A stretch of 64,000 nt of DNA from Rhodospirillaceae bacterium. Its GTDB lineage: Bacteria; Pseudomonadota; Alphaproteobacteria; DSM-16000; Inquilinaceae. The position numbers were made by a program, and so were the translations under genes. Below, one piece after another: positions 1-56,831 of this stretch; the stretch's first letter is position 1; every line of letters starts with the position of its first letter. Below the pieces are notes generated by a model. That model saw only the letters and a list, made by a program, of their open reading frames with translations, was not told the origin of the DNA and did no database searches. The stretch lies in the NCBI GenBank assembly GCA_020638595.1, contig JACKIG010000018.1, positions 2,532 through 66,531 of the forward strand, given 5' to 3'.

Positions 1-8
1 CCTTCGCC

Positions 9-29009: not shown

Positions 29010-29059
29010 CGCTCCCCATCGTCCGCTTCCGCGGTCGCCGGGGCCGCGGAATGCCCAAA

Positions 29060-30871: not shown

Positions 30872-31604
30872 GTCCGGGCAAGGATAGGGATGCAACGGGG
30901 GCGCCAATGTGGCGCGGGTCGCATCGGCAGGGCAAGCCGGTGCGGGGCGGCTTCGGCGGGTCGGCGCGCGCGGGATCGGGGACGACACCGGCTTGCGATG
31001 ATACCAACGGGCCGATGAAATCCAGACCGTCTCGCCCATTTATGGTCGCTTGAGATTAACTCTATCTTAACCCAACATTCGGCGACGGAACCTAATCAAA
31101 GGCCTGATGTCCGGCGGGTCCGGTTCGCGCGTTGTCTGTGCAGTGTGGCCATTTCACGTGAGACTAAGTTGAAACGTTCTCGCGAAATCCGCATGAGCGG
31201 TACGTCGGCGAGCCGACGACCTGGATAATTTGAAGACGTAGTTCGTCGGGTTGAAATGATGTCTTTCCGCCTCGCAGGGGCATGAATTCGATGGTGGGCG
31301 CACTGAATGAAGTGGTCAATTTGACTTCAGGTAGTATCAACGAGATGTGCGAGCACATTCAGTCATTGAGAGCACCTTCAAATCGCGCATCAGTATTTGA
31401 TAAATGTTTCTCGGTCGATGTTGTGGCTGTCGGTGATTAACTAATATCATTCCATTCATTAACCAATAATATCGCTAAAATGCGATCTAAAGGGATGACG
31501 ACGGCGGTCCGGCGAAGTAGTGTAACCGGCGAGGGAATACGTGTGTCCGGGGCCGTTGCGTGTCGCGAGCGGCGAAACTCCGGGGGCAAAGGGGGAACCA
31601 AGCA
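30872..31604. promoter_or_regulatory. divergent control region with an AT-rich core (about 31040-31520)
   Basis: 733 bp between the cyclase start (30871, minus) and the giant gene start. The base composition drops sharply: 20 G/C in the 60 nt at 31441-31500 by my count, against a clearly GC-rich surrounding sequence. ATTAAC/CTTAAC strings recur (31051-31070, 31435-31465). Confidence 0.5.
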
Positions 31605-34600
31605 ATGACCAGCCGTCGCAATCGAGCTGAGACTAGGGTCCATGGTCCTGCCGACGCCCGGCGGACACCCTTGGGCAGGCTCGGGCTTGGGGCCCCGCAT
31701 GACCCCACATGGCGATTCGCGCGGATGCGCCCCTTGGGGCGATCGCCGGTGCTGCGCACGGCGCTGGTCGGGTCGACCGCGCTGACGGCGGCCGGTGTCT
31801 GCGGCCACCTGTTCCTTTCCGACGCCGCCATGGCGCTGCCGACGGACGGCACCGTGGTCGAGGGCCAGGCGGAGATCATTTACGGCGAGAACTCGGTCAC
31901 GATCCAGCAAGGGTCCGATCGTGTCATCATTGAATGGCAGACCTTCGACATCGCGGGGCATGAAAGCGTCGACTTCATCCAGCCCTCCGCCTTTGCTGCC
32001 GCCCTCAATCGCGTCCTCTCCGGTGCCCCCTCGCAGATCCTCGGCTCGCTGACCGCCAACGGGCAGGTCTTCATCTCCAACCCCGCCGGCATCAATTTCG
32101 GCCCCAATGCCAATGTCGACGTGGCGTCCATCGTGGCGACCTCGCTCGACATCATGAACCGCGACTTCATGGAAAGCCGGCTGGACTTCAACATCGCCGG
32201 CGACCCGACGGCGGTGATCGAGAACCACGGCGCGATCCGGGCCAGCGGCCTGGCGGCGCTGGTGGGCCCGGGTGCCCGCAATGCCGGGGTGATCGTCGCC
32301 GACGTGACGATCCTGGGCGGCGGCCAGGGCTTCGCGCTGGACTACTACGGCGACGGGCTGGTGAACTTCACCATCACGGACCCGACGACGGCGCAGCCGA
32401 TCGATGCGGACGGCAACCCGCTGGCGGCGCTGGTGGTCAACGACGGGACGATCATGTCCGATGGCGGGCAGGTGATCCTGGCGGCCGATGCGGCGGCGGG
32501 GGTGATCGACAACGTCATCAACCTGGACGGCGTCGTGATGGCGCGGTCGATCGCGACAGAGGGCGGGCAGGTGGCCCTGGTCGGCGGCGACGAAGGTGCG
32601 GTCGTGGTGGCCGGCACCATCGAGGCGACCGGCGACGACGACGGCGAAGCAGGCGGCACGGTCCATGTGCTGGGCGACACGGTGGTGCTGGCCGACGGGG
32701 CGGTGATCGACGTGTCGGGCCGGGCCGGCGGCGGCACGGCGCTGATCGGCGGCGATCAGGGCGGCGGCGCCCATGTGCCGACGGGGTCGCTGGCGTATCT
32801 GGCACCGGCGGCCGGCGGCCGCTCGGGCACCACCATCGTGGTGGATGCCGCGTTCGAAACCGACGGCTTCATCCCCGAGGCGGACATCGTCTATGTCGAA
32901 GGCGGGTCCGTGGTGGCGGCCGATGCGACCGATACCGGCGACGGCGGCACAGTCGTGGCCTGGGCGAATGACGAACTGGAATTCCACGGGTCGATCAGCG
33001 CCGGAGGCGGCGCCAACGGCGGCGACGGCGGGCTGGTCGAACTGTCCGGCGGTACCCTTGTCGCGGATGGGGCCGTTGAACTCCGCGCCGCCTTGGGCAA
33101 GGCCGGAAGCCTGATCCTCGATCCGACCGTCCTCCTCGTGTCCGAAGTCAGTGGCACGATCGACAGCGTTCTTGGCGTGGGCGGCAGTGGCGGCACGGTC
33201 AACCTGACGGCGACCGAGGCAATCATTGTCGACGTAGCGATCGACACCTCGGGGTCGGCGGTTGCCGGGACGTTGAATTTCGATGACCAGGATGACGACA
33301 ACGCGCTGACGGTCAACCTGGACAACCCGATCACGCTGGGCGCGGCGCAGGGCATCACCGGCGAAGCCACCATCGTCAACATTTCCACGACGCTGGGCGA
33401 TGCCATCCAGGACGGCATCGACATGTCCGCCGCCGGCGCGACCATCAATGTCGCCCCGGGCACCTATGTGGAGAATGTGACCATCGACCGGTCGTTGACC
33501 CTGGTGTCGACCGACGGGCGCGACGTCACCACGATCGAGGGGATCTCCGGCGCCGGATCGCTGGGGACGGTGGTCATCGTCCCGAATGTCAACGACGTGC
33601 AGATCGGTGATATCGGCCACGGATTCACCATCGAAGGCATCGATAACGGCAGTCCGGGGATCGAAAACGCGGCCGTCTACCTGCAGGGCAGCCACGACGG
33701 TATCGACATCATCGGCAACGACATCGTCGCCAACGGCGATGCGGGCCTGCTGAGCGAAAACACGGCCACGGTCAACGACGTCGTCGTCGACAACAACATC
33801 TTCTCCGGCCAGACATTCGAAGGGTCGGCCCCGGCCGGCGACGGCTTCGGCCAGCAGTTCACGCTGCCGAACGTGCCGCGCCAGCTGGTGACGTTGAGCG
33901 GTCCCAATACATCGAACGTCGCCTTCACCAACAACGAGATCACCGGCACCGCCGGCGGCACCAATGCCGGCGGCAACCCCCAGGGCAATACGCTGGTGAC
34001 GATCGATGCCACCAACGCGACGATCACCGGCAACATCTTCAACGGTGTCACGTCGCGGTACGGGACCAGCCTGCGCGCGCGCGGCACCAACACCCTGATC
34101 AGCGGCAATACGTTCCATGCCGCGGGCCTCACCGACACCAACGGCCACCTGTTCGTCCACGAGACGATCTATACCGACCTGCCTGCGGGCGCCCCGTCGA
34201 ACATCGTTGAGATCTTCGAGGCCAACACCTTCGTCGGGCGTGCAACCGTCACCAGCGACGACGGAAATGTCGGCGCGGACGGCATCGGACTGACGATCCA
34301 GGGTGCGATCGACGCCTCCGTTGCCGGGGCGACGGTTCACGTCAATGACGGCCTCTATGAGGAAAGCATCGTCGTCGACCGGGCGCTGACCGTCGCCGGC
34401 GGCGGCATCGGCAACACGACGACGGTGGCTGTCGAGGCCGGCAGCGTCGGCATGACCATCACCAGCAGCGACGTCACGGTGACGGGCATCGAATTCGACG
34501 GCCAGGATCAAGCCAATACGACCGGCGTGCTGGTCGAAGCCGACGGCAGCAATGTCGAAGACGTGACGCTTCAGGCGGTGGCCTTCACCGACCTGACGAC

Positions 34601-37600
34601 CGCATTGCGCACCACCGGCAGCAGTGGCGGCGTGCGGCGCGTCGATGTCACCAACAGCATGTTCGACGGCATCTCCGGTGTCGTCTTCGACCTGGACGGC
34701 GGGTCGTTCGCCGACACGTTCACCGTGTTCAACAACCGTATCATCATCGCCGATCTGGATGCCGATCTGCTGCGCCGGCCTTTCAACCGCGTCCTGAACG
34801 CCAGCGGCAACTTCTGGGGCGTCGAGGACGGCAGCCCCGAGGGCTTCCGCATCCTGTCGGAAACCGAGGTCGCCGAGCGCGTGGTCGACGGCAGTGGAAC
34901 CGTCGTGTCCGGCCGGCTGGACTTCACGCCCTTCCTGACCAGCGCCGAGGATACGGATGCGGCCGACGGCTTCCAGGGTGATTTCAGTGAACTGTTCGTG
35001 ACCACCCTGGGCGGGCAGTCGGGCAGCACCGGCCGCATCCAGGAGGGCATCGACCTCGTCAGCGGCAGCACGGTGCTACTGGGCGCGGGCACCTTCGTCG
35101 ATCCGACGCAGGTGGTCATCGGCGCCGACATCACCATCCAGGGCCAGGGCGCCGGCACGACCATCGTCACGCCCGGTTTCGATACCGGCACCAGCGGGCG
35201 TTCGCGGGCCTGGTGGGTGGTGGAAGACGGCGTGGTTGCCGACATCAGCGGCTTCACCATGGACGGCAGCGGGCACCAGATCTTCACCGCGCTGATGCAC
35301 CATGGTTCGGGCACGATCGACGAACTCGCGTTCGAGAACATCCGCTACAGCACCTATCTCGGCTTCGGCGTCATGGTCCGCGAGGACTATCTGACGCCGG
35401 GCGCCGGGACGCCGCGCGTCGTCAATGTCACCAATTCGACCTTCAGCAATATCGAACGGGTCGGCATCCACTATTTCGACGACGGCACCACCGGCACGAT
35501 CAGCGGCAACACCTACACCGGCAAGGGCGCTGTCGATGCGCTCGACTACGGGATCGAGCTGGGCGGCGGCGCGGTGGCCGACATCATCGCGAACACCATC
35601 ACCAACAATATCGCGGAGGCGTCGACCGATCACTCGAGCTCGGCCGCTATCCTGATTTCGACGTATTTCGGGCCGGGAACGGCAGCGACCATCGAAAACA
35701 ACGTGCTGACGGGCAACACGATCGGCGTGGCCGTCGGTTTCGACAGCTCCGACACCAGCGCCGTCACCATCTTCAACAACGACTTGAGCGGCAACACGTT
35801 TGGCGTGACGTCAAGCGCACCGGTCGTCGATGCGTCCGGCAACTGGTGGGGCACGGATGACGAGGAGCAAGTCCGCGCGCTGACGAGCGGCGCGGTCGAC
35901 TTCACGCCGTTCCTGACCAGCGGCGGCGACACGGATGTGGCCGACGGCTTCCAGGGCGATTTCTCCACGCTGTTCGTCACCGCCTTGGGTGAGCAGAGCG
36001 GCGGCATCGGCCGCATCCAGGAAGGCGTGGACCTGGTGAGCGGCAGCACGGTGCTGGTCGGTGCCGGAACGTTTGTCGGCAACGTCGTCATCGACAAGAC
36101 ACTGACGCTGTCGGGCGCCAATGCGGGCATCGATCCCAACACGGGCACGCGCGGGCCCGAGACGATCATCGTGCCGGGGACGTCGGACCTGGATGCCGTC
36201 ATCGGCGTGACGGCGGACGGCGTGACCATCGACGGCGTGACCATCGACGGCGACAACACCGCACTGACCACCGCGACGATCGACGACCACACCAACGGCA
36301 GCGATCCGGATGCCTATTACGGCGTCGCCAATACGGACAATGCCGGCACCTACACGGCGATCGACAACCTGACGATCACCAACAGCATCATTACCAACCT
36401 GACGGATGCGCCGGACGGCGGCTACGAGGGCTGGGGCGTGGTGTTGTGGACGCCGTCGGGCACGGCGATGTCCGGCAACCTGATTTCCAACAGCCTGTTC
36501 GACTATGCGGGCGGGCGCTCGATCGTGCTGCTGTGGAACGGCTATGCCAGCGTTACGGACAACGTCATCCGCAACACGCCGGTCGGCATCTATTCGGAGA
36601 ACATGTACCGGGCATCCGCCGGTCCATGGTCCTGGACGGGCAACCAGGTGTCGGCCAGCATCGCCGGCATCTGGCACAACCTGGCCTATCAGGATGCGAC
36701 AACGCTGACGATTGCCGGCAACACCGTCACTGCCGAAGCGGCACCGGCGGCCCTGGGCGTTGACGCGCGGCGCTGGGCCGGCGTGTGGGTCAGTTCGATC
36801 CAGAACGCCGTCGACGTCGTGATCCAGGACAACATCATCGACGCCATCGCGCTGGCCGGCAGCCGGCTGACGACCGGCTATGAGATGTGGAACCTGCCCA
36901 CGACGGCGGACATCGCCATCGAAGGCGGCACCGTCTCGCATGTCGACTACGGCGTCTGGGTGCAGAATTTCTCGCCGTCGTTCAATGCCGGCGGTGATAC
37001 CGCGGTGACGATCACCGGCCTGACGCTGGAAGACTTCAATGCGGGCGGCGTGGGCGTCTTCGTCGACGACGATCCGTCCGGCACGGCGTCCGTGTCGGCC
37101 AACCTGCTGAATACGCCCAATATCATCGACGGCGACGGCGGGATGGCGGTCGGCATCCTGGCCGAGGGGGCATTGGCCTCCCTCACCTTCACCGGCGCGA
37201 CGCCGGTTCAGTTCGTCAATTTCGACGACCCGGGCCAGAACTACATCGCGCTGCGTGACGGCGCCATGGCTGGGCAGGAAATCGATGGCAGCGGGCTGAC
37301 CTTCGAAGGCCTGACGGCTGCGGCACTGGGCGATGACGCGGCCGGCCGGGCAGCGGGCTTCAACCTCGAAGACCGCATCGAACACTACCTCGACAACGAG
37401 GGCGTCGGGTTCGTTCGCCTGGATGCCGACCGGATCTGGGCCACCGTCTCCGACAACCACACCACCAATCCGGGCGCCGTGCGCCGCGCGGTGGAGCAGA
37501 GCGTGCCCGGCGGCACGGTGTTCCTGGCCGACGACGTCTTCCAGGAAGACGGCCAGATCGTGATCGCCGACACCCTCACCGTTCGCGGCGAGGGCATGGA

Positions 37601-40600
37601 CGCGACCGTCGTGCAGTCGGTGTTCGATACCGGGTCCTCGGGCGACAACCGGGCATGGTGGCTGGTGGATACGGGCGTGGAGTTCCACCTGAGCGGCCTG
37701 ACCCTGGACGGCAACGGCCAGCAGGTCTACCAGGCGATCCGCCACAAGGGCAGCGGCACCGTCGATGGTGTCCGTTTCACCGACATCCAGTTCAATGCGG
37801 GCGGCCCGACCTATCAGGGGACGGCCATTGCTGCGTTCGGCGATGGTGCGGTGGATGTCACCGGCTCTGTCTTCGAAGACATCGGGCGCGTCGGCGTCCT
37901 GTACTACGGCGCCGGCGTCAGCGGCAGCGTCTTCTCCGGCAATACCTATACCGGCAAGGGCGCGGGCGACTGGCTGGACTATGCGCTGGACATCAGCAAC
38001 GGCGCCCAGGTGACAGTCACCGCCAACACGATCACCAACAACCTGGGCGTGGCGTCGTCCGATAGTTCGACCTCGGCCGGCATTCTGGTCTCGACCTTCT
38101 TCGGGCCGGGGACCTCCGCGCTCATTCAGAACAACTTCATCACCGGCAATTCGACCGGCGTGTTCGTTGGTTTCGATGCGTCGGATACCAGCACAGTCAC
38201 CGTTTTCAACAACGACCTGTCCGGCAATGGTGCCGGTGTCCGCAGCACGGCGGCCCTCGTCGACGCATCGGGCAACTGGTGGGGCACGGATGTCGAGGCA
38301 GACGTCCTGGCGCTGACCAGCGGCGCGGTCGACTTCACCCCGTTCCTGGTGAGCGGCACGGACGGGGATGACCTGGCATCGACCGGCTTCCAGGGCGACT
38401 TCTCGACGCTGTTCGTCACCACGCTGGGCGAGCAGAGCGGCAGCGTCGGCCGCATCCAGGAAGGTGTGGACCTGGTGACGGCCAGCCGCGTGATCGTGGG
38501 GGCCGGCAGCTATATCGAGACGGTGCTGATCGACAAGTCGCTGGAGCTGGTTGGGGCGAACAACGAGCACGTGAGCCCGGACGACATCCTCCGCGGGGCA
38601 GAGAGCGCGATCATCGGCGGCATCCAGGTGGGTGCCGGCATCAGCGGCGTGACCATCGACGGCCTCAGCATCATCGATGGGGCGGCCATCCTGGGTGAGA
38701 CGGCGGGTATCTATCTGAACAACAACGCCGACGACGTCACCATCGCCAACACGATCTTCACGCGCACGGGTGCGCCCGGCTTGGCGCGCGGCATCATCAC
38801 GTCCGGCGCCGGGGTGTCCCATGTGGACATCACCGACAACAGCTTCACCGGCTGGGCGACCGGCGTCTATGTGAACCCCAATGCCGATGACGTGGAGGTC
38901 GGCGGCAACCTGTTCGACGGCAACACCGTCGGCATGTCGGTCGACGGCCCGTCTGGGGCGGGCGGCGTCACCATCGACGGCAACACCTTCACGAACAGCA
39001 CGTTCGAGGGGCTGGGCATCGGCCCCGATGCGGCGCCGACGATCCAGAACAACCACTTCGCCGACAACGCCGTGCATATCGGCGTGTACGGCACGGGGTC
39101 CGTGCCCGACATCAATACGCTTCTGGGCGCGGGCAACACCTTCGACCGCTGGGTGACGATCAGCGCCGGCCAGGGCGGGGCGTGGGACCGGCAGGCGGGG
39201 TCCGTCTACGGGATGATCCAGCCGGCGATCGACGATGCCGGCATCGGCGCCACCGTGCTGGTGGGCCCGGGGACCTATGCGGAAAGCCCGCTGATCGACA
39301 AGTCGCTGACGCTGACTTCGGACCAGGGGCGCGATGCCACCTTCATCCAGCTGCAGACGGGGCCGACCTATCTGGGCTCGCTGACGATCGGCGGCGACGA
39401 CGTCACGGTCGACGGGTTCACCATCATCGGGCGGGACGGTACGCCGGGGCAGATCGGCGCGGCGAACATCTGGGTGATGGCGGGGCTGAACGAGATCGTC
39501 ATCTCCAACAACCGCTTCCAGGTGGGGCAGTTCGACGCCGGCAGCACCAACGGCGAAGACGGCATCGGCATCCTGACGACCTATGACGTCAGCGGCACGA
39601 ACGACGTGGCCAGCCTGACGGTGACGGGCAACATCTTCGAACCGCTGAACGGCAGCGGACGGCGGGCGTTCTACATCAACCCGGGGGTGCAGGACTTCGA
39701 GTTCTCGAACAACAGCATCCTGGGCAACTTCACCAGCACGGCGATCACGCAGGCCAGGAACGGGCTGGTGGCGTACAACACCGTCACGGGCAACGGCAGC
39801 TCGGCGACGCTCGCCACCTGGGGGTATCCGGATCCGGACGTCTTCGGCCGGACGACGTTCCGCGGCAACACGATCTCGGGCACGGCCGCGGGCCTCATCG
39901 TGTACGAGACCAACAACGTCACGATCGAGCATAATTTCATCGACGACGTCGGCACCGGTATCCGGGTTCTGGATCTCGGAAGCTTCAGCGGCGACCTCGA
40001 CGGGTCGACGATCACGATCTCCGACAACAGCGTCACCAATGTTGCCGGCCTGCTGGTCGAGAATACCTATTCGACCACGGTGAACGCCTCGGGCAACTGG
40101 TGGGATTCCACGGACGAGTCGGTCATCGCCGGGCGGATGTCCGCCCTGGTCGACTTCACGCCGTTCCTCATGAGTGGCACGGACACGGATAGCCTGGCGT
40201 CGACCGGCTTCCAGGGTGATTTCTCGACCCTGTTCGTCACCACGCTGGGCGAGCAGACCGGCAGCACGGGCCGCATCCAGGAAGGTATCGACCTGGTCAC
40301 GGCGAGCACCGTGATCCTCGGTGCCGGAACCTTCACCGATCCGGCCCAGGTGGTGGTCGACAAGGACGTGGTCATCTACGGCCAGGGGCCGGGGACGACC
40401 ATCATCACGCCCGGATTCGACACCGGCAGCAGCGGCAATGCGCGCGGGTGGTGGCTGGTCGAGAGCGGCGTCGACCTCCAGCTCTCCGACGTGACCTTCG
40501 ACGGTGCGGGGCACCTCGTCTGGCAGGCGATCCGCCACCAGGGGTCGGGCAGCATCGACAACGTCGCGTTCCAGAACATCCTGTTCAATCCGTCCTCCAG

Positions 40601-43600
40601 CTATGCGGGCACGGCGGTGGCCGCGTTCGGCACCGGCGCGGTGGACGTCACCAATTCCACGTTCACGAATATCGGCCGCATCGGCGTGCAGTATTTCGGG
40701 GACGGCGTGGACGGCAGCGTGTTCGCCGGCAACACCTACACCGGCAAGGGTGCCGGCGACTGGCTGGACTACGCGCTGGATATCGGCAGTGGTGCGGAGG
40801 TCACGGTCCTGAACAACCGCGTCGAGAACAATCTCGGCGTGGCCGACAGCGACGGCTCGATCTCCGCCGGGTTCCTGGTCAGCACCTATTACGGCCTGGG
40901 GACGGGCGCCGTGTTCGGCGGCAATACGCTGGAAGACAACACCGTCGGCATCGCCGTCGGCTATAACTCGGCAGACGAGAGCACGGTTCAGTTCCTGGCC
41001 GACGGTACCGTGGTCGGGGCCTACACGGTGGCGGGCGCCAACACCTTCATCGGCGGTGACACCGGCATCTTCTTCTCCGGCAACGGGCAGGCGATCGTCG
41101 GCGACACCTTCGCCGACGCCGTGTTCCGCGGCCAGAGCGACCTGTTCATCCAGCTGCACAACGATGCGCTGTCCGACCCCGGCACGGTCCGCGTGCTGGA
41201 TGCCTCCGGCGTCAGCTTCTTCACGGATACGGCCGGGACGACGGCGGCCACCGGCTTCGAGATCGAGGCCGGGCTGGAGCACTTCCTCGACGATCCCGAC
41301 AAGGACCTGATCGACTACACGTCCGCCGGCGGCGGGCTGTTCGTGACCGACGGCAACAGCATCCAGCTTGCCGTCGACGCCGCCGGTGCCATCGGCGGCG
41401 CGCAGACGGTGACGGTGGGCGCCGGCAATTTCGGGGGCCGCATCCGCATCGACTTCAACGACATCACCCTGTTGGCCGACCCGACGCTGGGCGACGGCGC
41501 CGTGGTGATCGACGCGGCGACGTCCGATGCGTTCGGGCGCGCGCCCAACGGCGTGCTGGGCAGCGGCGCCATCGCCGGCATCGACCCGGTGGCCATCTGG
41601 GTCGGCCGCGAGGACGGCGCGGGCGGCGGCACGCTGACCGGCGTGACCATCGACGGCTTCACCTTCCAGCAAAGCACGGCGGGCGACTTCGTCGGCGTCT
41701 TCGTCGAGGCCAACGAACAGCGTGTCGGCACGGTGCGGATCCTGGCCAACACCTTCGACGGGCTGACCACGGCGATCGGGTCGCGGCGCGACGTGCCGGG
41801 GCTGGGCGTCGACAACCTGATCGTCCGCAACAACTTCTTCGATGGCATCACCGGGACGGTGTTCGACTTCCGCACCGGTTCCGTCGCCAACCAGTACGAG
41901 GTGTTCAACAACCAGGTGATCCTGGCGGACCTGGGCGGTGTATTGGTGCGTCGTGGCGCGACGACCGTGCTGCAGGCCAGCGGCAATTTCTGGGGCGTGG
42001 CCGACGGTGGCGGTTTCGTGGCTCTGAGCGAACAGCAGATCGCGGAGCGCATGGTCGACCAGAACGGCGCCATTGCGACCCAGCGCGTCGACTTCACACC
42101 CTACCTCGATATCGGCGGCGATACCGACGCGGGGACGCGCGGCTATCAGGGCGACTACTCCACCCTGCATGTCTCCGCCCTCGGCTCCCAGGTCGGGACC
42201 GTCGGGCGTATCCAGGAAGGCGTGAACCTGCTGTCGGCCAGCACCTTGCTGATCGAAGCCGGGACCTATTTCGAATCCAACATCACGGTCGGCCTGTCGG
42301 CCACCATCCTCGGCAACGGCGCCTCCCGCGCCGACGTGATCATCGCGCCGGAGGCGGAAGACAGCCACGACAGCAGCACCTTCGGCGGCGTCGCGCAGAA
42401 CGCCTTCATCATCGCGGCCGACAACGTGACGATCGGCAACCTGACCATCGACGGGCAGGCCAATCCCACTCTGACGGCGGGGCGCAACAACTTCCGCACC
42501 GGCATCACCCATGACAACACCGCCGGCGATTTCGGCGGGCTGGTGGTGGACAATGTGGAGATCCGCAACGTCTTCCGGCGCGGCATCCAGATCTTCGGTG
42601 ACGGCAGCTTCACCAGCGTCGGCAATGTCGTGCGCAATTCGACCATCACCAATGTCGAACAGCGCGCCGGCATCCTGGTCGCCTATGCCGAAGCGCTGCT
42701 GGAAGACAACATCATCACCGGCGTGAACGAAGGCATCCACGTCTTCAACTTCGGTGGCGATGTGCCGGTCACGGTCAGGCGCAACCAGATCACGCCCAAC
42801 GCCGGCGGCCTGGGCATGCAGCTGGTGGGCCTGGGCACCGGGTCGATGATCGGCGGCGCCACGGACGCCGACGGCAACGTGATCAGTCTCGAGACGACGA
42901 CGGACGGCGAAATCGGGATGATCGTCCAGTACACCGATCACACGGTGTATGTGGATCACAACACCATCACCGCCGACGGCACCGATGTCGCCATCTGGCT
43001 GTTCCACAACGAGGATGACAGCGCGTTCCCGATGGTCCGCAACAACACGCTGACCTCCACGGACAGCGTGTCCGGCGGCTTCGGCGAGGGCGTCGGCATC
43101 TTCATGACAGAGGACGGCACCTTCTTCGGTGACGAGGACGGCGCCGGCTACGCCGCACTGGAAGGCAACAGGATCACCGGGTTCGACCGCGGCATCCAGC
43201 TGTACCGCAGCGGCGGGGCGACTGGGACGGCGCGCGAACTGGCGGCCAGCCTGACCGGCAATACCATCACGTCCAGCGTCGACGGCATCGGCATCCATAT
43301 GGTCGACGAGGGCAATGCCGGTACCGGGCCCGCGTCTCTGGCCTTTATGGGCGGCACCACCATCGACGGCGGCGTCGACGGCCTGGTCGTCTCGGGTGAA
43401 AACACCCTCCTGGTTGGCGATACGCTGGCCGACACCGTGTTCACCAACCAGACGGGTGACTTCGTCCGCTTCGAAAACGCAGCCCTGTTCGAGCCGGGAC
43501 AGCCGACGGTCATCGATGCCACGGGCGTCGATTTCGACGGGCTGACCGATCCGCTCCAGATCGAGAGCCGCGTGGTCCACTACCTCGACACCGGCGATGT

Positions 43601-46600: not shown

Positions 46601-49600
46601 CACCTTCGACGGTGGCACCGACGGCATGGTGTTCAGCGGCCCGGCGATGGACTTCGCCGGCACGCCGACGCTGGAAAACACGGCATTCACCGGTCAGACG
46701 GGCGACTATGTCCGCCTGGTCAATGGCGCCTTCTTCCAGCCCGGGGAACCCACGATCATCGACGCAACGGCGGTCCGTTTCGACGGCGTCACCTGGGCGT
46801 CGGCGACGCCGCTGCAGCAGGCGACGATCGAAGACAAGGTCGTGCACTATCTCGATACGGGCAACGTGGGCCTGCTGTTCTTCGGCAGCCTGGTCGTCAA
46901 CGACGGCGGCAGCATCCAGCTTGCGGTGAATGCGGCCGGCCTGCTGGGCGGCGCACAGACGATCACCGTCAATCCGGGCACCTATGGCGGCAGCGTCGAG
47001 GTGTGGGTCGACGGGCTCAAGCTTGAAGGTGTCGCGGGCGCCACCATCAACACCTCCGTCGCCGACCTGTTCGCGAACAACGGCGATGTGGGCAACGGCT
47101 TCTATGTGGCCGATCTCGGCGATATCGGTGACGGCAGTGCCGAGGCGGCGCTGTCGGACGCACACACGACGAATGGCCGCGTGGTCAGTGGCGTCAACAT
47201 CGACCCGTTCACCATCACCGGCTCGGGCATCGGCATCGAACTGGGCGGTGCCACCGCCCTTGGTGCGGCGCCGGACGCGGCGGTCGACACGGTCGTCGAC
47301 GGCAATACGGTCGACGTCGCCGGCCACGGCATCGTGGTCCACACCGTCGGCGGCACGACGACGCTGACGAACAACGACGTCACCGCGGGCGGCCACGGCA
47401 TCCTGTTCACGCGGGTGCTGGCGGACGTGACGGTCGATATCCGCAGCAACACGGTCGACGCCGGCCGGGATGGCATTCGCTTCAACGGTGCCATCGACGA
47501 TGCGACGATTGCGGTCGGGACGTTGTGGGACCCGAACACGATCACGGCGGACGACTCCGGCGTCGTGTTCGTCCAGTCGGTGCTTTCCGACAGCTACATC
47601 ACCGTGAGCGGCAACCAGATCACGGCGGGGCCCAGCCTCGGCGATCGCGGCGTCGAATTCCGCAACGGCATCGAAGACAGCTTCGTCTGGGTCAGCCTCA
47701 ATGCGATCGGTGCCGGCGATGACGGTATCGCCTTCTACGACCTCAACGGCGGGGCGAACGGCAGCGGCGTCCGGGCGATCGCGGGCAACAGCGCCGTCAT
47801 CGTGACCGGCAACGTCATCGGGACGGAGGCCGACCCGGTCGGCCAGGAGGGCCTGGACTTCGACGAGATCACCGGCACCTCCGCCGTGGTCATCATGGGC
47901 AACACGATCTACGCGGCCCGCGACGGCATGCAGTTCGACCGCGACATCGACACGACCGGCATCGCCTACGCCACCCCTGGGGTTGGCCTGCAGTCCATCG
48001 GTTCGGTTGCCGTGCTGGACAACGAAGTTTTCGCCGGCCGTCATGGCGCGTTCTTCGACAACGAGATCGCAGGTTCGGACATCGTCTTCGGCGAGAACGA
48101 TTTCGGATCCGATGCCGACCCCCTGGGCGGCGACGGCGTCCGGTTCAACCGGATCAGCGGCGATGCGGTGGTCAGTTTCGAACGCGAGCACATCGATGCG
48201 GCGGGCAATGGCGTCTCCGTCACCGGCGGCATCGTGGACACAGCCAGCCTGGACTTCCGCCAGGCGCGCGTGCCGACCATCGCGGACGGGCGTGACACCG
48301 ATATCAATGCCGGCGGCATCGCCGTCGACGTCACCAACCTGCAGTCGCCGACGACGCTCAGCTTTGCGGGCGGCAGCTTCACGGGCGGGGATGTCGCGCT
48401 CAACGTCGACAATACCGGCCTGCCGGCCGGCACCGCGGGCACGGTGGCGTTCAGCAACGCCCCGCTGTTCTCGGTGACGAACCCCGGCGGTACGGTGGCG
48501 CAGTTCCTGACCGACGGTACCGGACCGGGCATCAGTATCGACTTCGGCACGGCGACGGCCGGCTTCAGCGGCGGCGCCAACGGCATCGTCTTCTCCGGCA
48601 CCGGCATCGACATCCTGGGCGGCGGTTCCGGCTTCGGCGGCAGCCTGGGGTCGATCGTGTTCGACGGCCAGACGGACCAGTTCGTGTCGCTGGTCAACGG
48701 TGCGGAGTTCGCGCCGGGCAACCCGACGGTGATCGACGCCAGCTCCGTCGACTTCGACGGCGCCGACCTGGCGGACCCGCCGGCGGTTGCCACCCTGGAA
48801 GCCAAGCTGACGCACTTCCTCGACAGCGGCGCCGACGGGCTGCTGTACCTTGGCGAGATCATCGGCGTTGCCGATGGCCAGAGCATCCAGCTGGCGGTGA
48901 ATGCGGCGGAGCATGCCCGCTTCGCCCTCAACGACGTGGGCGCGGTGACGCAGGTGGCCGTCGGGTCCGGCACCTACGGCGGCAATATCGAGCTGTGGGT
49001 CGACGACCTGAAGCTGACGGGCGTGGACACCGGCGGCGGCGACCCGGTGATCGACCTGGTGAACGGCGGCAACGGCGGTGTCGACCCGTACTCCAACAAC
49101 TCGGGCTCCCAGCCCCATGCCTTCCTGGTCGGCGATTTCGGGGTGATCGGCGACGGGACTTCCGGCGACGTTGCGGGGCAGGCGTTCGGCTCTTACGCCA
49201 ATGGCAACGACGTCAGCGGCGTGTCGATCGATCCGTTCACCGTGCTGGGTGACGGCACGACGGCATCCTCCGGGATCATCCTTGGCCTGCCGGAAGTCCC
49301 CGGTATCTCGCCGGCAAGTGTCGCCATCGACACGACCGTCGACGGCAATACGCTGGGGACCGCCGCGGCGCCGCTGGGCACCGGCATCGTCGTCAACGCC
49401 ATCGGCGGCACGACGACAATCATCAACAATGCCATCGTCGCCTACGGGCACGGCATCCGGTTCGTCACGGCGCTCAGCGACGGCCAGGTCGTCGCCATCC
49501 ACGACAACGTCATCGCGGCCAACGAGGATGACGATGACGAAGGCAGCGGCATCTACTTCGCCGCGGTGGTGGACGACGCCACGGTGCAGATCGGCGACGG

Positions 49601-52600
49601 GACGGGCGGCAGCCTCGGCAGCGGCTTCTCCAACGTCATCACGGTGGGCGGCACTGCCGGCAACCCGGCGGAGCTTGACGCCATCCACTTCCATTCGACG
49701 GTGGGCGGCGACGCGTCGATCGTGATCGACGGCAACCGGCTGGGTTACACCGCCGGCCCGATCGCGGCGGCGCAGTTGCCGGACAACGGGATCGAATTCC
49801 ACGGTGCCGTCACCGGCTCGGCCGATATCGACATCACCGACAACTGGATCCTGGCGGCCGACGACGGCGTGCAATTCGCCGCCCCGGTGGACGTCACCGC
49901 GAACATCCTGATCGGCGGTGCTTCCGACGGCAACACCATCGAAGCGGGCGGCGACGGCATCGCGTTCCTGGCGACGCTGACCGGCCAGGCGCTGGTGGAC
50001 ATCAGCCATAACGACGTCGACGCCGACGGCAACGCCCTGTTCTTCCAGGGGCGGGTCGACAACGCCCAGGACCCGGCGGTGAGCGGGCAGGAGCTGTTCA
50101 TCCACCACAACAGCCTGGTCGGCGGCGACAACGGCATCCTCTTCGCCGGCGGCATCTCCGGCGCACGTCACGACACGCGGATCGCCGACAATTCCCTGAT
50201 CGACGGCGACGGGCGCAGCGCCATCCGCGTGGAGGGCGGCATCAACGATGCAGAGGTGCGGATCCTCGCCAACACGGCGATCGTGGGTGCGGTCGACGGC
50301 GTCGATATCCTGGGTGGCGTGAGCGGCACCGCGCTGGTGCGCATCGCCGACAACATGTCCATCGAGGGCGAGGGCGATGACGCCATCGACTTCGCCGATG
50401 CGGTGGATAACAGCGTGATCCAGATCGTCGACAACGGCGTGATCACCGGTGCCGGCAACGGCATTGAAATCGCGAACGTGACCGGCGGCGCCACCGTCCT
50501 GATCCAGGGCAACGACGCCGGCATCTTCGGCGGGATCGACGGCATCCAGTTCGCCGGTGCGGTCACGGGGTCGACCGTGACCGTGTCGGAGAACATCATC
50601 GAGGCCGAAGGCGACGGTGTGGAGTTCGCGGGCGCGATCGGTGGCGGCAGCACCGTGACCATCAGCGACAACGCGCGGATCCTCTCGACCGTCGATGCTG
50701 ACGGAGTTGATGACGACGGCATCGCCTTCGAAGGGCCGATCACCGGGGCGACGACGTCGATCCTGATCACCGGCAATAGCCGGATCGAGGGTCAGGACCG
50801 CGGCATCTCGTTCGATTTCGGCGGCTCCATCACCGATGCGTCGGTGACGATCAGCGCCAATACGATCGCTGCCCTGGAATTCGACGGCATCCTGTTCAAT
50901 GCGACGATGACGGACGCGACGATCCTGATCGGCGGCCCGACGGATGCCGACGGCAACACCATCACCGGCGAGGACGAGGGCATCGACATCGACCGGATCG
51001 TCGGCGGATCGTTCACCGTCTCGCACAACACGCGGATCGAGGGCACCACCGGCGACGGCGTCGAGTTCGAGGCGGCGATTTCCGACAATGCGGCGATCGC
51101 GGTCATCGACAACCACGATATCGTCGCGGGGTTGACCGGCATCACCTTTGAATCGACGGTCGGCGGCGGTTCGACCGTGCTGATCCAGGGCAACAACGAC
51201 GGGATCGTGGCGGGCAACCACGGCGTCGCCTTCTTCGGGTCCGTCGCCGGTTCGACCCTGGACATCCACGACAACATCATCGAGGCCAACACAGACGAGA
51301 ACGGCATCGGCGCCGGCGTGTTCTTTGCGGTCGACGTGACCGATGCACACATCGACATCGGTGACGGCACGCTGGGCGGTGCCCCGTCGAACATCATCAC
51401 TGTGCACGGCAATTCCGTCGTCCCGGCCGACGCGGCCGATCTCGACGGCATCCTGTTCGCGGGCGGGCTTGGCACCGGTGCGGACATCCTGATCGACGGC
51501 AACCGGATCGGCTTCGAGGCGGGGACCCTCGCCAACGCCGATGTGGCGGACGACGGCATCGAATTCCGCGGTGGCGTCGGGTCCGATGCCAGCGTGGAGA
51601 TCACGGACAACCGGATCCGCGCGCTGGATGGCGGCGTGCAGTTCACGTCCATCGTGGATGGGACCGCTACCATCATCATCGGCGAGACGCCGACGGACGC
51701 CGACGGCAACATCATCGTTGCCGGCGGTGACGGCATCGCGTTCCTGTCGTCGCTCACGGGGCAGGCGCTGGTGGACATCAACCACAACGACGTGACCGCG
51801 GTCGGCAACGCGTTGCTGTTCCAGGGCGTGGTGAACAACGCACTGGTCCCGGAGACGAGCGAGCAGGAGCTGTTCATCCACCACAACAGCCTGGTCGGCG
51901 GCGACAACGGCATCTTCTTCGCCGGCGGCATCGCAGGCCTGAACCACGATACGCGGATCAGCGCGAACACCCTGATCGAAGGGCAGGCTCGCAATGCCAT
52001 CCGGGTGGAAGGCGGCATCGTCGAAGCGCAGGTGCGCATCCACGACAATGCGCACATCGAAGGGGCGGAGGACGGCATCGACATCCTGGGCGGCGTGGGC
52101 AACGCAGCACTGGTGCGCATCGCCGCCAACACCGCGATCATCGGTACGGGTGACGACGGCATCGATTTCGAAGACGACGTGACCGGCGCCGCGGTGGTGG
52201 AGATCGACGCCAACGACTCCATCCAGGGCATCGGCGGCACGGGTACCGGCGGCGGTGGCAGCCACGGCATCGAATTCGCGTCGATCCTGGATGCCGGCAC
52301 GCATGTGGCCGTGACCGGCAACCACGACATCACCGCAACGGTGGACGGCGTGCATGTGGGCGGTGCGATCACTGGCGCCAGTGTCGACATCTCCGCCAAC
52401 AACGACGGGATCACCGCCGGTGTGCATGGCGTGTTCGTGGGCGGCGCGATCACCAATGCGCTGGTCAACGTGTCGGGCAACGTCATCGATGCGGGCAACA
52501 CGGCCGGCGCCAACGGCGATGGCGTGCACTTTGCCGCAGCGGTCGCGGACTCCGTCGTGACCGTGGGTGACGCCGCCGGCAACGGCAACACCATCACCGT

Positions 52601-55600
52601 CGGCCCGGCGGCGGCGGGGAACGGCACACTGCATGACGGCGTCTATTTCGGCGGCGCCATCACCGGTGCGACGCGGGTCCTGATCGGCTGGAACGACATC
52701 GACGTGCTGACGACGACGGGCGGCGGCGGGACGTCGTTCGGCGACATGGGCATCCGCTTCGACGGGTTCGTCAACACCGCACCGGGCGGGACGACGGGTG
52801 TGGGCATCGTCCATAACCTGATCGATGCCGGCGGCGGCAAGGAAGACCGCGGCATCTCGTTCTGGGACGGCATCGGCGGCCAGTCGACGGTGCGTATCGC
52901 CGGCAACACGATCCAGGCCGGCGACGACGGCATCGGCGTGTTCGACGTGTCCTTCGTGGGCGATGCGGCCGGCACCAACGAGTCCGTGCGCGGCAGCGCG
53001 GTCGTGCTGATCGAGGACAACGACATCGGCACCACGCTCGACCCGGTGGGCCAGGCGAGCCCCGGGACACCGGGCGACGGCAACGGCATCGACTTCCAGT
53101 CGGTGACGGGGGCCTCGCATGTCGTGATCCGCAACAACACGGTGTTCGCTGCGGACAACGGGATCGAGTTCGACAAGATCGTCGATACGACGTTCGGCAA
53201 TGCCACGACCTTCCCGGACCTGGAATTCGGGGTGGAGATCACGGACAACCACGTGGTGTCGCAGGACGAGGACGGCGTTCAGTTCGCGCAAGGCGTGGAC
53301 GGCAGCCATGTGCTGATCGACGGCAATGACGTCGCAGGCCACATCCATGGCGTCAGCTTCGGGCTGGATCACCATGGCTTCACCGGCGGCGGCATCACCA
53401 ACGGTGCGCTGGTCGCGATCACGCGCAATGCCATCGACGGTGCGACCGGCGACGGCGTGCATGTGGACGGCGAAGTGCTGGGCTCCACGGTGGGCCTGGT
53501 TACGAACGCGATCCAGGGCGGCCTGAACGGCGTGTTCTTCGGTGGACCGGTGTCCGGGTCGGACATCTACATCCTGTGGAACCCGCACATCGTCGGCGAG
53601 ACCGAGGACGGCATTCACGTCGACGACGATGTCGAGGACAGCCTGGTCGTCATCTCGGCCAACGGCTGGACCGCGGACGACGATGATGCGCCGGACGCCG
53701 ATGCCGTGGCCGCGAGTGTGGGCGAGGCGGGCAGCCTGGTGGCGACGCCGACGGACGCGCCGTGGGACGGGTGGACGCTGGCGGGCGGCATCGTCGGGCA
53801 GCGGGACGGCATCGACTTCGACGGCGTGGTCGAAGACGCCAGCGACGTCAGGATCGGGTGGAACCGGTTGATCCTCGGCTACGGCGACAGCGGTATCGAG
53901 TTCAGCGGCGTCAGCGGTCCGGAGACCGGCGTCCTGATCCACACCAATGGCGTCATCATCGGCGCGGGCAACGGGATCCAGTTCCGCCGGCCGGACGGTG
54001 AGCTGATGATGTCGAGCCCCGGCGGGTCGGGCATCGGCTGGGCGATCGATCAGGCTAGCGTGACGATCGGCGGCAATTGGCTGATCGCAGGGGTGTCCCA
54101 GGACGGCATCCAGGTGAACGGGGTGCACGGATCGGGCGTCAGCGCGACATCGGCGTATTTCGACGACGACGAGGAGTCGGAGACGTTCGGGACGATCGTG
54201 CCGGTGGCGACGGACCCGTCGCAGCCGAACCTGCTGATCGAAGAGAACACGACGATCGTCGGCCAGCGCGACGGCATCCATTTCGGCCTCGGGTTCGACG
54301 CCGCCACGGATGATGTCTACCGGCCGGATACGGTAGTGCTGGACGAGGTGGGCAGCCCCGGCATCGGTGCGAGCGTGAACGGCGCCCTGGTCGTGATCGA
54401 CCTGAACGGGCAGGCGGACTACCAGGCGGACCCGGATGAAGACGGGCCGGCAGTGATCGGGGATCTCTATGATCCGGCGATTGCCGTGGTGCTGTCGGAC
54501 CTGGACTTCGGCTTCGGGCTGTTCGACCTGGGCGGCCGCGTGGCCGGGGTCACGGGCGACGGCATCGACTTCGCGGGCCAGATCCACGACGGGTCGACGG
54601 TGCAGATCCAGCGCAACATGCTGACGGGCAGCGGCGACAACGGGATCGAGTTCGCCGGCATCGGCGAGCCGGAGACCCTGTCGGCGGGGCTGGCCCTGGT
54701 CGAGGACGAGGCGTTCGGCCCGACCAGCGTGTTCATCCACAACAACTTCATCGTCGACAACGGCCGGTCGCTGGCTAGCGAGGAGCCGGACGAAGGCCTG
54801 ACCTCGGCGACGCTGGTGGACAGCTCCTACGCGGGCTCGGGCATGACGGTGGGGGCCGGCATCCTGTTCGAACAGGGCGTGGGCAATGTGTTCGGCAGCG
54901 ACGAGGAGAGCGACGGCGGCGGCGTGGAGGTGTTCCAGAACTTCATCGCCGGCAATGGCGGGCCGGGCATCCAGATCGGCTTCCCGGAGGAGGCGACGAG
55001 CGAGGAATTCCTGGCGCTGGCGGATTACAGCTACGGGGACGACAACGAACGCCTGTACGACGGCGTGGTATCGGCGGACAACCTGTCGGTGATCCACAAC
55101 TACCTGCCGGGCGGCGTGGACGAATTCGACGATCGTCCGAACGGACGCTTCGGGGTGGCCAACTACGCCAACGACGGCAGCGCGGTGTTCGCACCGGAAA
55201 ACTGGTGGGGCACGTCGGCGTCGGCGGCGGCCGTGTCGGCACAGACCTTCGGGGCCGTGACCGTGTCGCCGTACCTGGAGACGGGCGAGGACAGCAACGA
55301 GGAGCGCATCCCCGGCTTCACCGGGCTGGGTCCGTTCGCCTTCCAGCCGGGGCCGACGGTGGGTCCGTCGATTGAGGATCTCTTTGCCGGCTTCCCGGTG
55401 GATCCGGACGCGCTCCGGTTCTTCGCCCGCACGGCCTTGAGCTCGCTGGACCGTCCGGGTGGGGCGCAGTACTTCACCAACGAGCTGGGCGAGCCGTACC
55501 AGACCAACGTGTTCGGCCCGACCTACGGCATCGGCGAGCTGGGCGATGGCCCGGGCGGTTTGCAGCCGGCGGCCGGTGGGCAGCAGCAAGACACGTGCGA

Positions 55601-55781
55601 GGACGGTGACGAGACCTGCGAGCAGGGGCAACAGACCCCGCCGCAGGGACCGCAGGGTCCGATCAACCTCGGCAACCTGACGCCGGCGGCCGGCCCCGGC
55701 AGCCAGCAGGTGCAGAATGCCGATACCTGCGTTGCCGCGTTCCTCGGCGACTTCTGGGGTGCTGCGGCGGCCTGCCAGTAG
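31605..55781 (+). CDS. giant two-partner-secretion (TpsA / filamentous-haemagglutinin-like) exoprotein, ~8,058 aa, made of parallel beta-helix cassettes
   Basis: One uninterrupted, strongly GC3-biased frame. SD-like AAGGGGGA (31589-31596) sits 8 nt before ATG 31605; alternative in-frame starts are GTG 31560 and ATG 31725. Signal-like [37 protein letters not shown] is followed by the TPS-domain start [10 protein letters not shown]... The body is rich in G/D/T/N/V/I/A with PbH1-like repeats such as GDDGIDF..V.I..N.I. Confidence 0.88.
   Translation: [8058 protein letters not shown]
31836..33130 (+). other. TPS (haemagglutination-activity) secretion domain and conserved N-terminal beta-helix of the giant protein
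   Basis: [96 protein letters not shown] (NPNGI-type motif, here NPAGINFG). Later [38 protein letters not shown]...GSLILDPT. Confidence 0.85.
49435..50420 (+). repeat. copy 1 of an in-frame 1,776-nt-offset internal duplication in the giant gene
   Basis: Matches 51211-52196. The 51-nt string caggagctgttcatccaccacaacagcctggtcggcggcgacaacggcatc occurs at 50088-50138 and again at 51864-51914. gacggcatcgcgttcctg occurs at 49953 and 51729. Both offsets are 1776 nt (592 codons). Confidence 0.85.
51211..52196 (+). repeat. copy 2 of the in-frame 1,776-nt-offset internal duplication
   Basis: Protein-level parallel: [35 protein letters not shown]...[40 protein letters not shown] versus [35 protein letters not shown]...[40 protein letters not shown]. 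Confidence 0.85.
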
Positions 55782-56276: not shown

Positions 56277-56831
56277 ATGGCGGACGATCAGGATCCAAAG
56301 AAGACGACCACTTTGCAGGATGGCGACATCCAGAGCCGGTCTGCGCTGCCGCGGCGTTCGCTGTTGCGCCTGGTCGGGCACGGCGCCGTGGGGGCCACGG
56401 CACTGGTGGGGGCCAGCCGCGAGGCGTATGCCATCACCGACAATGACAGCGGGCCCTGCGCCGATCCGGTGAATGCAGGGCGCGGCTATTCCGGCATCAC
56501 CGACAACGATACGGGTACCTGCGCGGATCCGGGGGGGCGTGGCCGCGGTGGCGGCGGATACACGCCCGGGTATACCGGCATCACCGACAGCGATTCCGGC
56601 GCCTATGCCGATGCCGCCGGCTATGGCCGCGGCCGCGTCGTGCGCGTCAACCAGCTTGTGCTGTCGATCCAGACGAACCTGGCCAATCTGGGCTTCAATC
56701 CGGGCCCGATCGACGGCGTCTTCGGCCAGCGGACGCAGGCTGCCATCATCGCCTTCCAGCGGACCTATGGCTATCCCGTCACCGGTGCGGCCGACCAGGT
56801 GACGATGGCGCAGCTGCAGCAGGTGCGCTGA
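56277..56831 (+). CDS. small exported protein: twin-arginine-like signal, three ITD(N/S)D(S/T)G..AD repeats, C-terminal peptidoglycan-binding (PG_binding_1-like) domain
   Basis: SRSALPRRSLLRLVGHGAVGATALVGASREAYA. Repeats ITDNDSGPCADP / ITDNDTGTCADP / ITDSDSGAYADA (about 56433-56640). C-terminus LVLSIQTNLANLGFNPGPIDGVFGQRTQAAIIAFQRTYGYPVTG. Confidence 0.7.
   Translation: MADDQDPKKTTTLQDGDIQSRSALPRRSLLRLVGHGAVGATALVGASREAYAITDNDSGPCADPVNAGRGYSGITDNDTGTCADPGGRGRGGGGYTPGYTGITDSDSGAYADAAGYGRGRVVRVNQLVLSIQTNLANLGFNPGPIDGVFGQRTQAAIIAFQRTYGYPVTGAADQVTMAQLQQVR

Follow-up and report, generated by a model that had tools for sequence, protein, structure and literature searches.

How does a protein of 8,058 residues leave a bacterial cell when no gene for a transporter of its class lies nearby? 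The question is raised by a gene that occupies 24.2 kb of the 64,000-nucleotide stretch of DNA analyzed here (the window), which comes from a metagenome-assembled genome (MAG) of a Rhodospirillaceae bacterium. A preliminary description of the locus took this gene (31605..55781, +) for the passenger, or TpsA, of a two-partner secretion (TPS) system that lacks its outer-membrane partner, TpsB, and saw in the missing TpsB a hint at an unconventional export partner. We find that its product belongs to a rare TpsA family that occurs in multiple copies in some Alphaproteobacteria (Rhodospirillaceae-like MAGs), and is the largest member known. We consider it likely that the protein follows a five-step route of Sec export, passage through a TpsB that is shared and encoded at another site, extracellular folding as a beta-helical fibre, retention by a terminal disulfide tether, and action as a surface adhesin. 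The idea that an orphan gene implies novel export is most probably an artefact of viewing one contig of a split system.

The N-terminus of the protein places it among the two-partner passengers. A TPS domain spans residues 77-339 (31833..32621, +), where the Pfam profile PF05860 matches with an E-value of 1.9e-28 and 100.5 bits (cut-off 33.5) and TIGR01901 with 72 bits; the motifs quoted in the preliminary description are present inside the PF05860 match, so that both the N-terminal TPS domain it recognized and the TpsA call it wished to see checked against Pfam stand. By sequence, the closest PDB relative of this domain is the secretion domain of EtpA (E 7e-51), with further matches to the HMW1 pro-piece and HxuA (2odl, 4i84, 4rm6). 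An AlphaFold (AF2) model of the first 600 residues, built on an alignment of 20 sequences, is ordered only from about residue 78 and attains predicted local distance difference test (pLDDT) values above 90 at residues 78-385 and 425-510; Foldseek matches the modelled TPS fold to the EtpA secretion domain with TM-scores of 0.92-0.94 at 34 % identity, and to HMW1 with a TM-score of 0.85. The fold is prolonged by a beta-helix extension (residues 340-512; 32622..33140, +) that aligns with relatives and with EtpA residues 371-464, and which includes the block DGG.VV.W....F.G.I.A.GG..GG.GG.VE.SG...LDP. The preceding signal region (residues 1-77; 31605..31835, +) is kept across the clade, with a hydrophobic window at residues 52-72, and is laid out as an Arg-rich variable extension, a conserved h-region (ALVGSTALTAAGVCGHLFL) and an A-x-A site (AMA followed by LPTDG). 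By inspection, we infer a Sec-type signal with cleavage between AMA and LP, directly before the TPS fold; a Pfam search of the giant protein recovered no match to ESPR (PF13018). As judged from its sequence and the predicted structure, the giant protein is a TpsA passenger of type Vb (two-partner) secretion.

The gene that encodes it is genuine and intact. In the ORF (open reading frame) listing the frame is uninterrupted from 31560 (GTG) or 31605 (ATG) to 55781 on the forward strand; the ATG agrees with the 'MS.RR' starts of relatives and yields a protein of 817 kDa with an isoelectric point (pI) of 4.05, which is probably NCBI MCB9948049, as judged from the neighbouring accessions MCB9948028 to MCB9948051. 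The window has a G+C content of 64-74 %, and the G+C of the frame at the three codon positions (0.63/0.48/0.89) is that of the real genes of the window, a pattern that marks both frame and strand as coding and bears out the ORF of about 8,058 residues described initially. The MAG origin of the sequence, the many paralogues in relatives and the high G+C content, which lets long ORFs survive by chance (as in an antisense ORF of 6,691 residues), might be taken to suggest an assembly chimera of paralogues or a decaying pseudogene. We hold this to be extremely improbable, as against it stand the single uninterrupted frame with coding third-position G+C (GC3) throughout, the presence of one TPS end and one C-terminal end, each correctly placed, and the existence of relatives of 4,370-5,144 residues. 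Moreover, no DNA repeat within the gene exceeds 82 % identity or 300 nucleotides, which makes assembly collapse or chimerism unlikely. The antisense ORF itself (35811-55886, -), which spans most of the giant gene, displays the antisense pattern of codon-position G+C and is a shadow frame, a by-product of repetitive GC3-rich sense codons, and no gene. In composition the protein is 15.6 % Gly, also rich in Asp, Thr and Val, and poor in Lys (0.3 %; Lys and Arg together 3.1 %), with five cysteines, one in the signal region and four within the last 61 residues. Halophily as the source of its acidity was ruled out by the median pI of 6.4 of the neighbouring proteins, and the acidity therefore belongs to the giant secreted protein rather than to a halophile proteome. 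A search for riboswitches, promoters and terminators around the gene returned nothing above noise.

To the C-terminal side of the TPS end extends a hypervariable, Cys-free body (residues 513-7924; 33141..55376, +), which we delineated by internal repeats, NosD matches and a motif map. It is made up of diverged long internal repeats (40-71 % amino acid identity, at most 82 % nucleotide identity) and several NosD/PbH1-type (pectin-lyase-fold) beta-helix modules, with the module-start motif 'G[TS][YF].E.V.ID[KR].L.L' recurring at residues 619, 1488, 2301, 4305 and 4664. Beyond the TPS region the Pfam and NCBIfam matches are solely of the NosD/PbH1 type, and no Fil_haemagg/FHA-1/FHA-2 repeat, PT-VENN, toxin domain or catalytic domain was detected in the giant protein with these libraries, in agreement with the initial remark that the part after the TPS domain is unlike classical FHA or CdiA. 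Nor were features of RTX adhesins found: the protein has a signal and a TPS domain, GG.G.D occurs once as against about three matches expected by chance, and the ABC systems of the window are binding-protein-dependent importers. Its very large size, variable body and distinct C-terminal region could nevertheless recall a CdiA-like protein for contact-dependent inhibition or toxin delivery, with the C-terminal module (see below) as the effector. Contrary to such a role, the CdiA-type features of FHA-1/FHA-2 repeats, a polymorphic toxin end and a downstream immunity gene are all lacking, and the only 'VENN' (residue 3073) lies within a PbH1 repeat. Furthermore, the module is conserved across paralogues rather than polymorphic, is only about 130 residues long and partly of low complexity, and neither the window nor the tandem arrays of relatives have a small immunity-type ORF after these genes; we accordingly rate this possibility as highly improbable. 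In short, the protein is comparable to FhaB/FHA and CdiA in its N-terminal TPS domain, predicted TpsB dependence and elongated beta-helix, but differs from them in its NosD/PbH1 body and in lacking Fil_haemagg/FHA-2 repeats, prodomain homology and a VENN/toxin/immunity cassette.

The relatives of the protein were found by profile methods. A word-indexed search with the N-terminal 700 residues returned only proteins of at most 1,225 residues, with TPS domains just 35-52 % identical to that of the window, and missed the true family. A profile scan with a TPS alignment, covering one genome per species, yielded 80 loci, the best three of which are L007 (73 % identical) and L009 (69 %), both from one MAG, and L008 (60 %), from an Alphaproteobacteria MAG. 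L007 is syntenic with the window, with the same two cyclase genes upstream at 74 % nucleotide identity, and its family gene, cut near the contig end, encodes at least 3,096 residues; the L008 ORF has 3,945 residues, and L009 is a tandem array with one complete copy of 1,333 residues. All three have both the N-terminal region and the C-terminal module in common with the window protein. When 1.84 billion cluster representatives were searched exhaustively by HMMER with the last 200 residues, only 17 proteins came up, of 1,245-5,144 residues, in which the module is always at the extreme C-terminus and the TPS start is the same. A metagenome scan found nothing with the C-terminal module, and with the N-terminus only relatives of 44-46 % identity. 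Among paralogues the TPS end is 57-78 % identical, as opposed to a body that is poorly alignable, and the body of the window protein aligns only partly with its relatives, in contrast to the two conserved ends. On the strength of these alignments, the family is defined by a conserved TPS end, a hypervariable beta-helix body and a C-terminal module of about 130 residues; its members range from 1.2 to 8 thousand residues, and the window copy is the longest, expanded by internal duplication relative to the others. The MAG that harbors L007, L009 and a further locus, L090 (GCA_028285185.1, JANQQD01), is labelled 'Anaerolineae bacterium'. These contigs, however, have a G+C content of about 64-66 % (as measured on L007 and L009) and carry proteobacterial TPS genes, and L007 is syntenic with the Rhodospirillaceae window; this is thus a probable case of mis-binning or mislabelling.

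Alignments of the family ends delimit the family-specific C-terminal module in the window protein to residues 7925-8058 (55377..55778, +). It contains, in order, the motifs DRPGGAQ[FY]FTNELGEP[FY]Q..VF, LQPAAG and GP[IV]NLG.L.PAAGPGS and a terminal Cys loop; the motif 'L[QE]PAAG' is conserved at two places, there are linkers of low complexity, and the module has no match in Pfam or NCBIfam. The loop is formed by C8042 and C8057 with one trailing residue (55728..55775, +): main-branch sequences end in ...CV..[FY]....W.....C-x, with a Cys spacing of exactly 14 and a single trailing residue in 16/16 sequences, and a side branch of the family has a Cys-x11-13-Cys loop with a longer tail. The mature window protein has no cysteine besides this loop and the pair C7998/C8005. 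The latter pair (TCEDGDETCE, Cys-x6-Cys; 55596-55619) sits in a Gln/Gly/Pro-rich insertion of the module and is confined to the window copy, being absent from all relatives.

We then turned to the transporter. All of the approximately 26 credible genes of the window, as derived from GC3, were scanned against Pfam, with no match to POTRA_2, ShlB or Omp85 among them; a TpsB profile built from 63 TpsBs had no match in any window ORF of at least 120 residues, and tblastn of five TpsB probes (three of them family-specific) against the six frames of the window gave no match either, with best E-values of 0.25-1.5. The 1.3 kb known beyond the left end of the window belong to a 689-residue protein devoid of Omp85 likeness. 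The initial statement that there is no TpsB in the 64 kb is hence confirmed by three kinds of search. However, the window makes up most of a 70,679-nucleotide contig of a fragmented MAG, and the absence of a TpsB from this contig consequently says little about the genome. The proteins of this MAG have locus tags beginning with H6842_, and the organism is represented in the sequencing runs SRR12358675, SRR12358676 and SRR15882951.

The loci of relatives are more informative. In four of them no TpsB gene lies within 10 kb on either side: L089 (GCA_028281925.1), with two family genes in tandem; L090, with three in tandem; L091 (P0131; ERZ25074506), on a closed contig of 4.07 Mb, with a gene for 4,740 residues and a TPS gene for 2,411 residues 2.5 kb downstream; and L093 (P0137; GCA_016307145.1), with a gene for 2,512 residues. 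At L092 (P0136; GCA_028284045.1), a gene for 4,370 residues with the same C-terminal module is directly preceded by a POTRA_2+ShlB gene, which in turn has a Sel1 gene before it. A canonical TpsB is encoded directly upstream of members with the C-terminal module or its variant at L092 and also at L094. A homology search with the L092 TpsB as the query led to two further transporters, P0141 and P0150. P0141, 55 % identical to the query, belongs to GCA_028281925.1, the MAG that also carries the unlinked L008 and L089; its locus (L096) is on a separate contig and syntenic with L092, comprising a Sel1+PG_binding_1 gene, the TpsB gene and then a gene for at least 3,035 residues. The TPS region of this adjacent TpsA is 62 % identical to that of the window protein and 57-66 % to those of the unlinked copies, and a TpsB of the P0141 type, 96 % identical, occurs in a second assembly. 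P0150, the TpsB of L094, is located 43 kb from the seemingly orphaned P0137 on the same contig; here too a Sel1+PG_binding_1 gene adjoins the TpsB gene, and two TPS genes come after it, the product of one of them having a variant Cys loop at its end. Across the wider TPS subfamily, 62 loci retain 5 kb or more of upstream sequence, and a TpsB is found nearby in 46 of these and not in the remaining 16 (about 26 %); adjacency of the two genes, which the window lacks, is therefore usual without being obligatory. Separately, a TpsB in a 10,937-nucleotide Logan contig (P0140) is 79 % identical to P0141, approximately the divergence of the window from its MAG relatives, and is thus a candidate for the transporter of the window organism itself.

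Read together, these loci point to a family layout with one core locus that includes a conventional TpsB and dispersed or tandem unlinked paralogues, that is, to an ordinary split TPS system, as seen in the relatives and by extension predicted for the source genome. The preliminary description had itself stated that a dedicated TpsB just beyond the window, or one clearly co-regulated elsewhere, would turn its orphan into such a system; by that measure the relatives have an ordinary split system (L092, L094 and L096), and the source genome probably does. The contrary possibility is that the genome has no dedicated TpsB and that the protein exits via BamA/TamA, another Omp85 protein or a route involving the neighbouring peptidoglycan-binding protein. 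It could draw on the lack of a TpsB in the 64 kb and in the further 1.3 kb to their left, and on the failure to recover any TpsB of the source MAG. However, relatives possess canonical TpsBs at separate loci, including the MAG of the closest unlinked copies, the TPS domain is strongly conserved as compared with the body, as expected if it still docks on POTRA domains, the assembly is fragmentary, and the Logan TpsB P0140 diverges from P0141 to the degree expected of this lineage; we therefore judge a true orphan to be very unlikely. The same low standing applies to the more elaborate proposal that the giant paralogues are exported or retained by BamA/TamA or by a partner provided by the peptidoglycan-binding neighbour, with the Cys-loop module as the recognition or anchoring element.

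In light of the split layout, we propose the following sequence of events. The precursor would cross the inner membrane by the Sec pathway via its long signal peptide, and the TPS domain would then dock on the POTRA domains of a conventional TpsB (Omp85) channel. This TpsB is predicted to be encoded at a separate core locus, composed of a Sel1/PG-binding gene, tpsB and a family tpsA, and to serve several dispersed or tandem paralogues. The acidic, Cys-free passenger of about 7,400 residues would thread through the channel and fold outside as a NosD/PbH1-type beta-helical fibre, which, if fully helical, might extend some 150-200 nm as scaled from FHA, whose fibre measures about 50 nm. By analogy with HMW1 and HxuA, the Cys-x14-Cys loop may be oxidized in the periplasm and, unable to pass the pore, tether the fibre through its TpsB. 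Finally, and this is the step of which we are least certain, the NosD/PbH1 modules suggest a surface adhesin or a matrix- or glycan-binding fibre. A shared, separate TpsB would account for the conservation of both ends while leaving the middle free to vary and to expand by internal duplication, and the strong conservation of the TPS end relative to the poorly alignable body fits docking on such a shared TpsB.

The proposed anchoring step is modelled on a known arrangement, as C-terminal disulfide anchoring has precedent in HMW1/HMW2 and HxuA (PMC5422565, PMC8151025, PMC13192263), with released TpsAs such as ShlA lacking such C-terminal cysteines (PMC13192263). In HMW1/HMW2 and HxuA of Haemophilus influenzae, which have the same TPS subtype, a C-terminal Cys pair ends a Cys-poor passenger, as it does in the window protein, and in HMW1 and HxuA it gives rise to a disulfide loop in the periplasm, by which the protein stays locked in its TpsB; we posit that the terminal loop of the family is a comparable periplasmic plug or anchor. 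The resemblance is one of arrangement, as no sequence likeness between the modules is demonstrable and that of the window protein is longer, at about 130 residues, with motifs of its own. The hmw and hxu genes share operons with those of their TpsBs and HMW1 requires HMW1C, whereas the window gene is unlinked and has no such glycosyltransferase. A different outcome, which we regard as unlikely though it deserves to be weighed, is that of a TpsB-dependent exoprotein released from the cell, with the C-terminal module acting as a cleaved prodomain (FhaB-like), an intramolecular chaperone or a processing element at 'xPAAG', and with the fibre or an enzyme array at work in the medium or matrix. EtpA, the closest solved relative, is a released adhesin, the 'L[QE]PAAG' motifs of the module, like its low-complexity linkers, might be processing sites, and NosD/PbH1 folds are known also from polysaccharide-active enzymes. 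Conversely, an invariant terminal Cys-x14-Cys-x in an otherwise Cys-free passenger is the reported hallmark of tethered TpsAs, which released ones such as ShlA do not have, and the giant protein has no catalytic-domain match. EtpA (a TpsA adhesin of enterotoxigenic E. coli; PDB 8cpk/8vba) indeed offers the closest solved TPS domain, a post-TPS block that aligns, and a passenger that is likewise beta-helical and repetitive; yet it has 1.7 thousand residues and comes from an etpBAC operon with a TpsB and a glycosyltransferase, whereas the window protein has roughly five times that length, ends in a Cys loop, and is encoded apart from any TpsB gene, with no glycosyltransferase gene nearby.

Several points weigh against the tethered, shared-transporter route that we favor. 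No TpsB of the source MAG was identified, the accessioned TpsB matches belonging to other assemblies, and the use of one TpsB in common by paralogues whose TPS regions are about 57-78 % identical is our inference. No glycosyltransferase is present among the window genes, including any of the HMW1C/EtpC type. The C-terminal module has no sequence match in the PDB even at an E-value of 10, and a structure model of the C-terminal 450 residues, built from a two-sequence alignment, has a pLDDT of 27 and is unusable. The anchor role is argued by analogy, from the position of the Cys pair and a TPS domain of the EtpA/HMW1/HxuA type, and one array member at L090 (2,183 residues) is without the C-terminal module.

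That one transporter should handle several passengers is not in itself unusual. FhaS of Bordetella is served by FhaC, and the TpsAs of Neisseria meningitidis by a promiscuous TpsB2. Published work likewise describes TpsBs that secrete more than one TpsA or are promiscuous (PMC5422565), includes further precedent for TpsBs serving multiple TpsAs and for C-terminal anchors (PMC5422565, PMC8151025, PMC13192263), and documents relaxed specificity with cross-secretion for BcpB of Burkholderia (PMC10449530). These systems have, as here, one transporter for several TpsAs and tpsA genes without an adjacent tpsB; the family differs in its apparently much higher ratio, with at least 4-7 family TpsAs per genome against the one family-type TpsB found so far, and in its members being giant and arranged in tandem or dispersed. 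A reading milder and more probable than that of a true orphan, though still less likely than not, is that a single TpsB serves at least 4-7 interchangeable giant fibres with the same disulfide plug, possibly switched by cyclic-nucleotide signalling. The apparent layout of one transporter and many substrates could in any case help define what TpsB specificity requires.

As to what is new, the expectation of undescribed biology in the preliminary description holds for the family, which is uncharacterized and has a C-terminal module absent from Pfam and NCBIfam, but not for its suggestion of a new export system. The novel elements are the subfamily itself, which is rare and has been seen only in a few alphaproteobacterial MAGs, the module with its invariant Cys-x14-Cys end, the high number of paralogues per apparent TpsB, and the record size of the window copy. 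With CdiA proteins at 180-650 kDa (PMC5422565), its 817 kDa exceed the published TpsA range and stretch the expectation for a 16-stranded TpsB pore that works without external energy. A secretion handle at one end and a putative disulfide plug at the other, both short and conserved, enclose a duplication-driven body of about 0.6 to 7.4 thousand residues, which amounts to a natural experiment in modular design, and the invariant Cys-x14-Cys module is a candidate signal for the anchoring of TpsAs in general, beyond Haemophilus. For genome annotation, seemingly orphaned tpsA genes are common (about a quarter of the subfamily) and should not be taken as a sign of new export routes, above all in MAG contigs.

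The genes around the giant gene were also surveyed. Upstream lie genes for sugar and redox enzymes, a GH15 enzyme, a TPR+CHAT protein (~8.9-12.0 kb), two ABC importers, an aspartate dehydrogenase and two class-III nucleotidyl cyclases; downstream are those for a Tat-type (twin-arginine) PG_binding_1 protein, a LysR regulator, a catalase, an aminotransferase, a YeiH-like protein and a GATase. The immediate neighbours had been described at the outset as two cyclases and a small peptidoglycan-binding Tat protein, an assignment with which the PF00211 and PF01471 matches agree. The cyclase genes (25659..31039, -) are divergent from the giant gene, one encoding SAM, cyclase and AAA_16 domains and the other SRPBCC, DUF5939 and cyclase domains, and are possible regulators of it. 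Class-III cyclase genes lie immediately upstream of family tpsA genes in two arrangements that are not orthologous to each other: as two large multidomain cyclases in divergent orientation (window 25659-31039 (-); L007 4022-9258), and as a small cyclase with a periplasmic binding protein on the same strand (L089 2856-3884; L090 300-1334). Near the core loci there is a PAS-HD_5 gene (L092, L096) or a cNMP-binding gene (L094). This co-occurrence may reflect cyclic-nucleotide control, or chance in cyclase-rich genomes.

In a sister TPS subfamily (about 45 % TPS identity) we observed a recurrent order of TpsB, TpsA and a TPR+CHAT (caspase-like) gene, in the triads at L001, L003, L023, L038, L047, L061, L065 and L066 (also L022, L032 and L078). 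In a single literature search, no publication came up that connects CHAT domains to two-partner secretion. The TPR+CHAT gene of the window (~8900-11971, +) encodes a protein 34 % identical over 512 residues to that of L001. As a third partner of the giant protein it was rejected, as the core loci L092, L094 and L096 are without CHAT and the window copy is 20 kb away. At the left edge, the ORF at 3-1085 (+) is the C-terminal half of the 689-residue protein mentioned above (L005 332-2401), which has no Pfam match, a C-terminal transmembrane helix and kinase-like motifs (HGCINPTNIF), and precedes a 190-residue membrane protein that likewise has no family match.

The small gene 495 nucleotides downstream of the giant gene (56277..56831, +) encodes a 184-residue PG_binding_1 protein (PF01471, 63.5 bits) with a twin-arginine-like leader and three 'ITDNDSG.CADP'-like repeats, and is possibly an accessory to it. 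Peptidoglycan-binding proteins recur beside the family (L092 6016-7239, L094 8753-9853, L096 8252-9439, L093 4852-8600 and window 56277-56831 (+)): in L094 and L096 the family TpsB has a Sel1+PG_binding_1 gene next to it, in L092 only a faint Sel1 is present, and PG_binding_1 genes lie upstream of P0137 in L093. The window protein and the Sel1+PG_binding_1 proteins of L094 and L096 have only the PG_binding_1 domain in common, at 45-49 % identity over about 55 residues.

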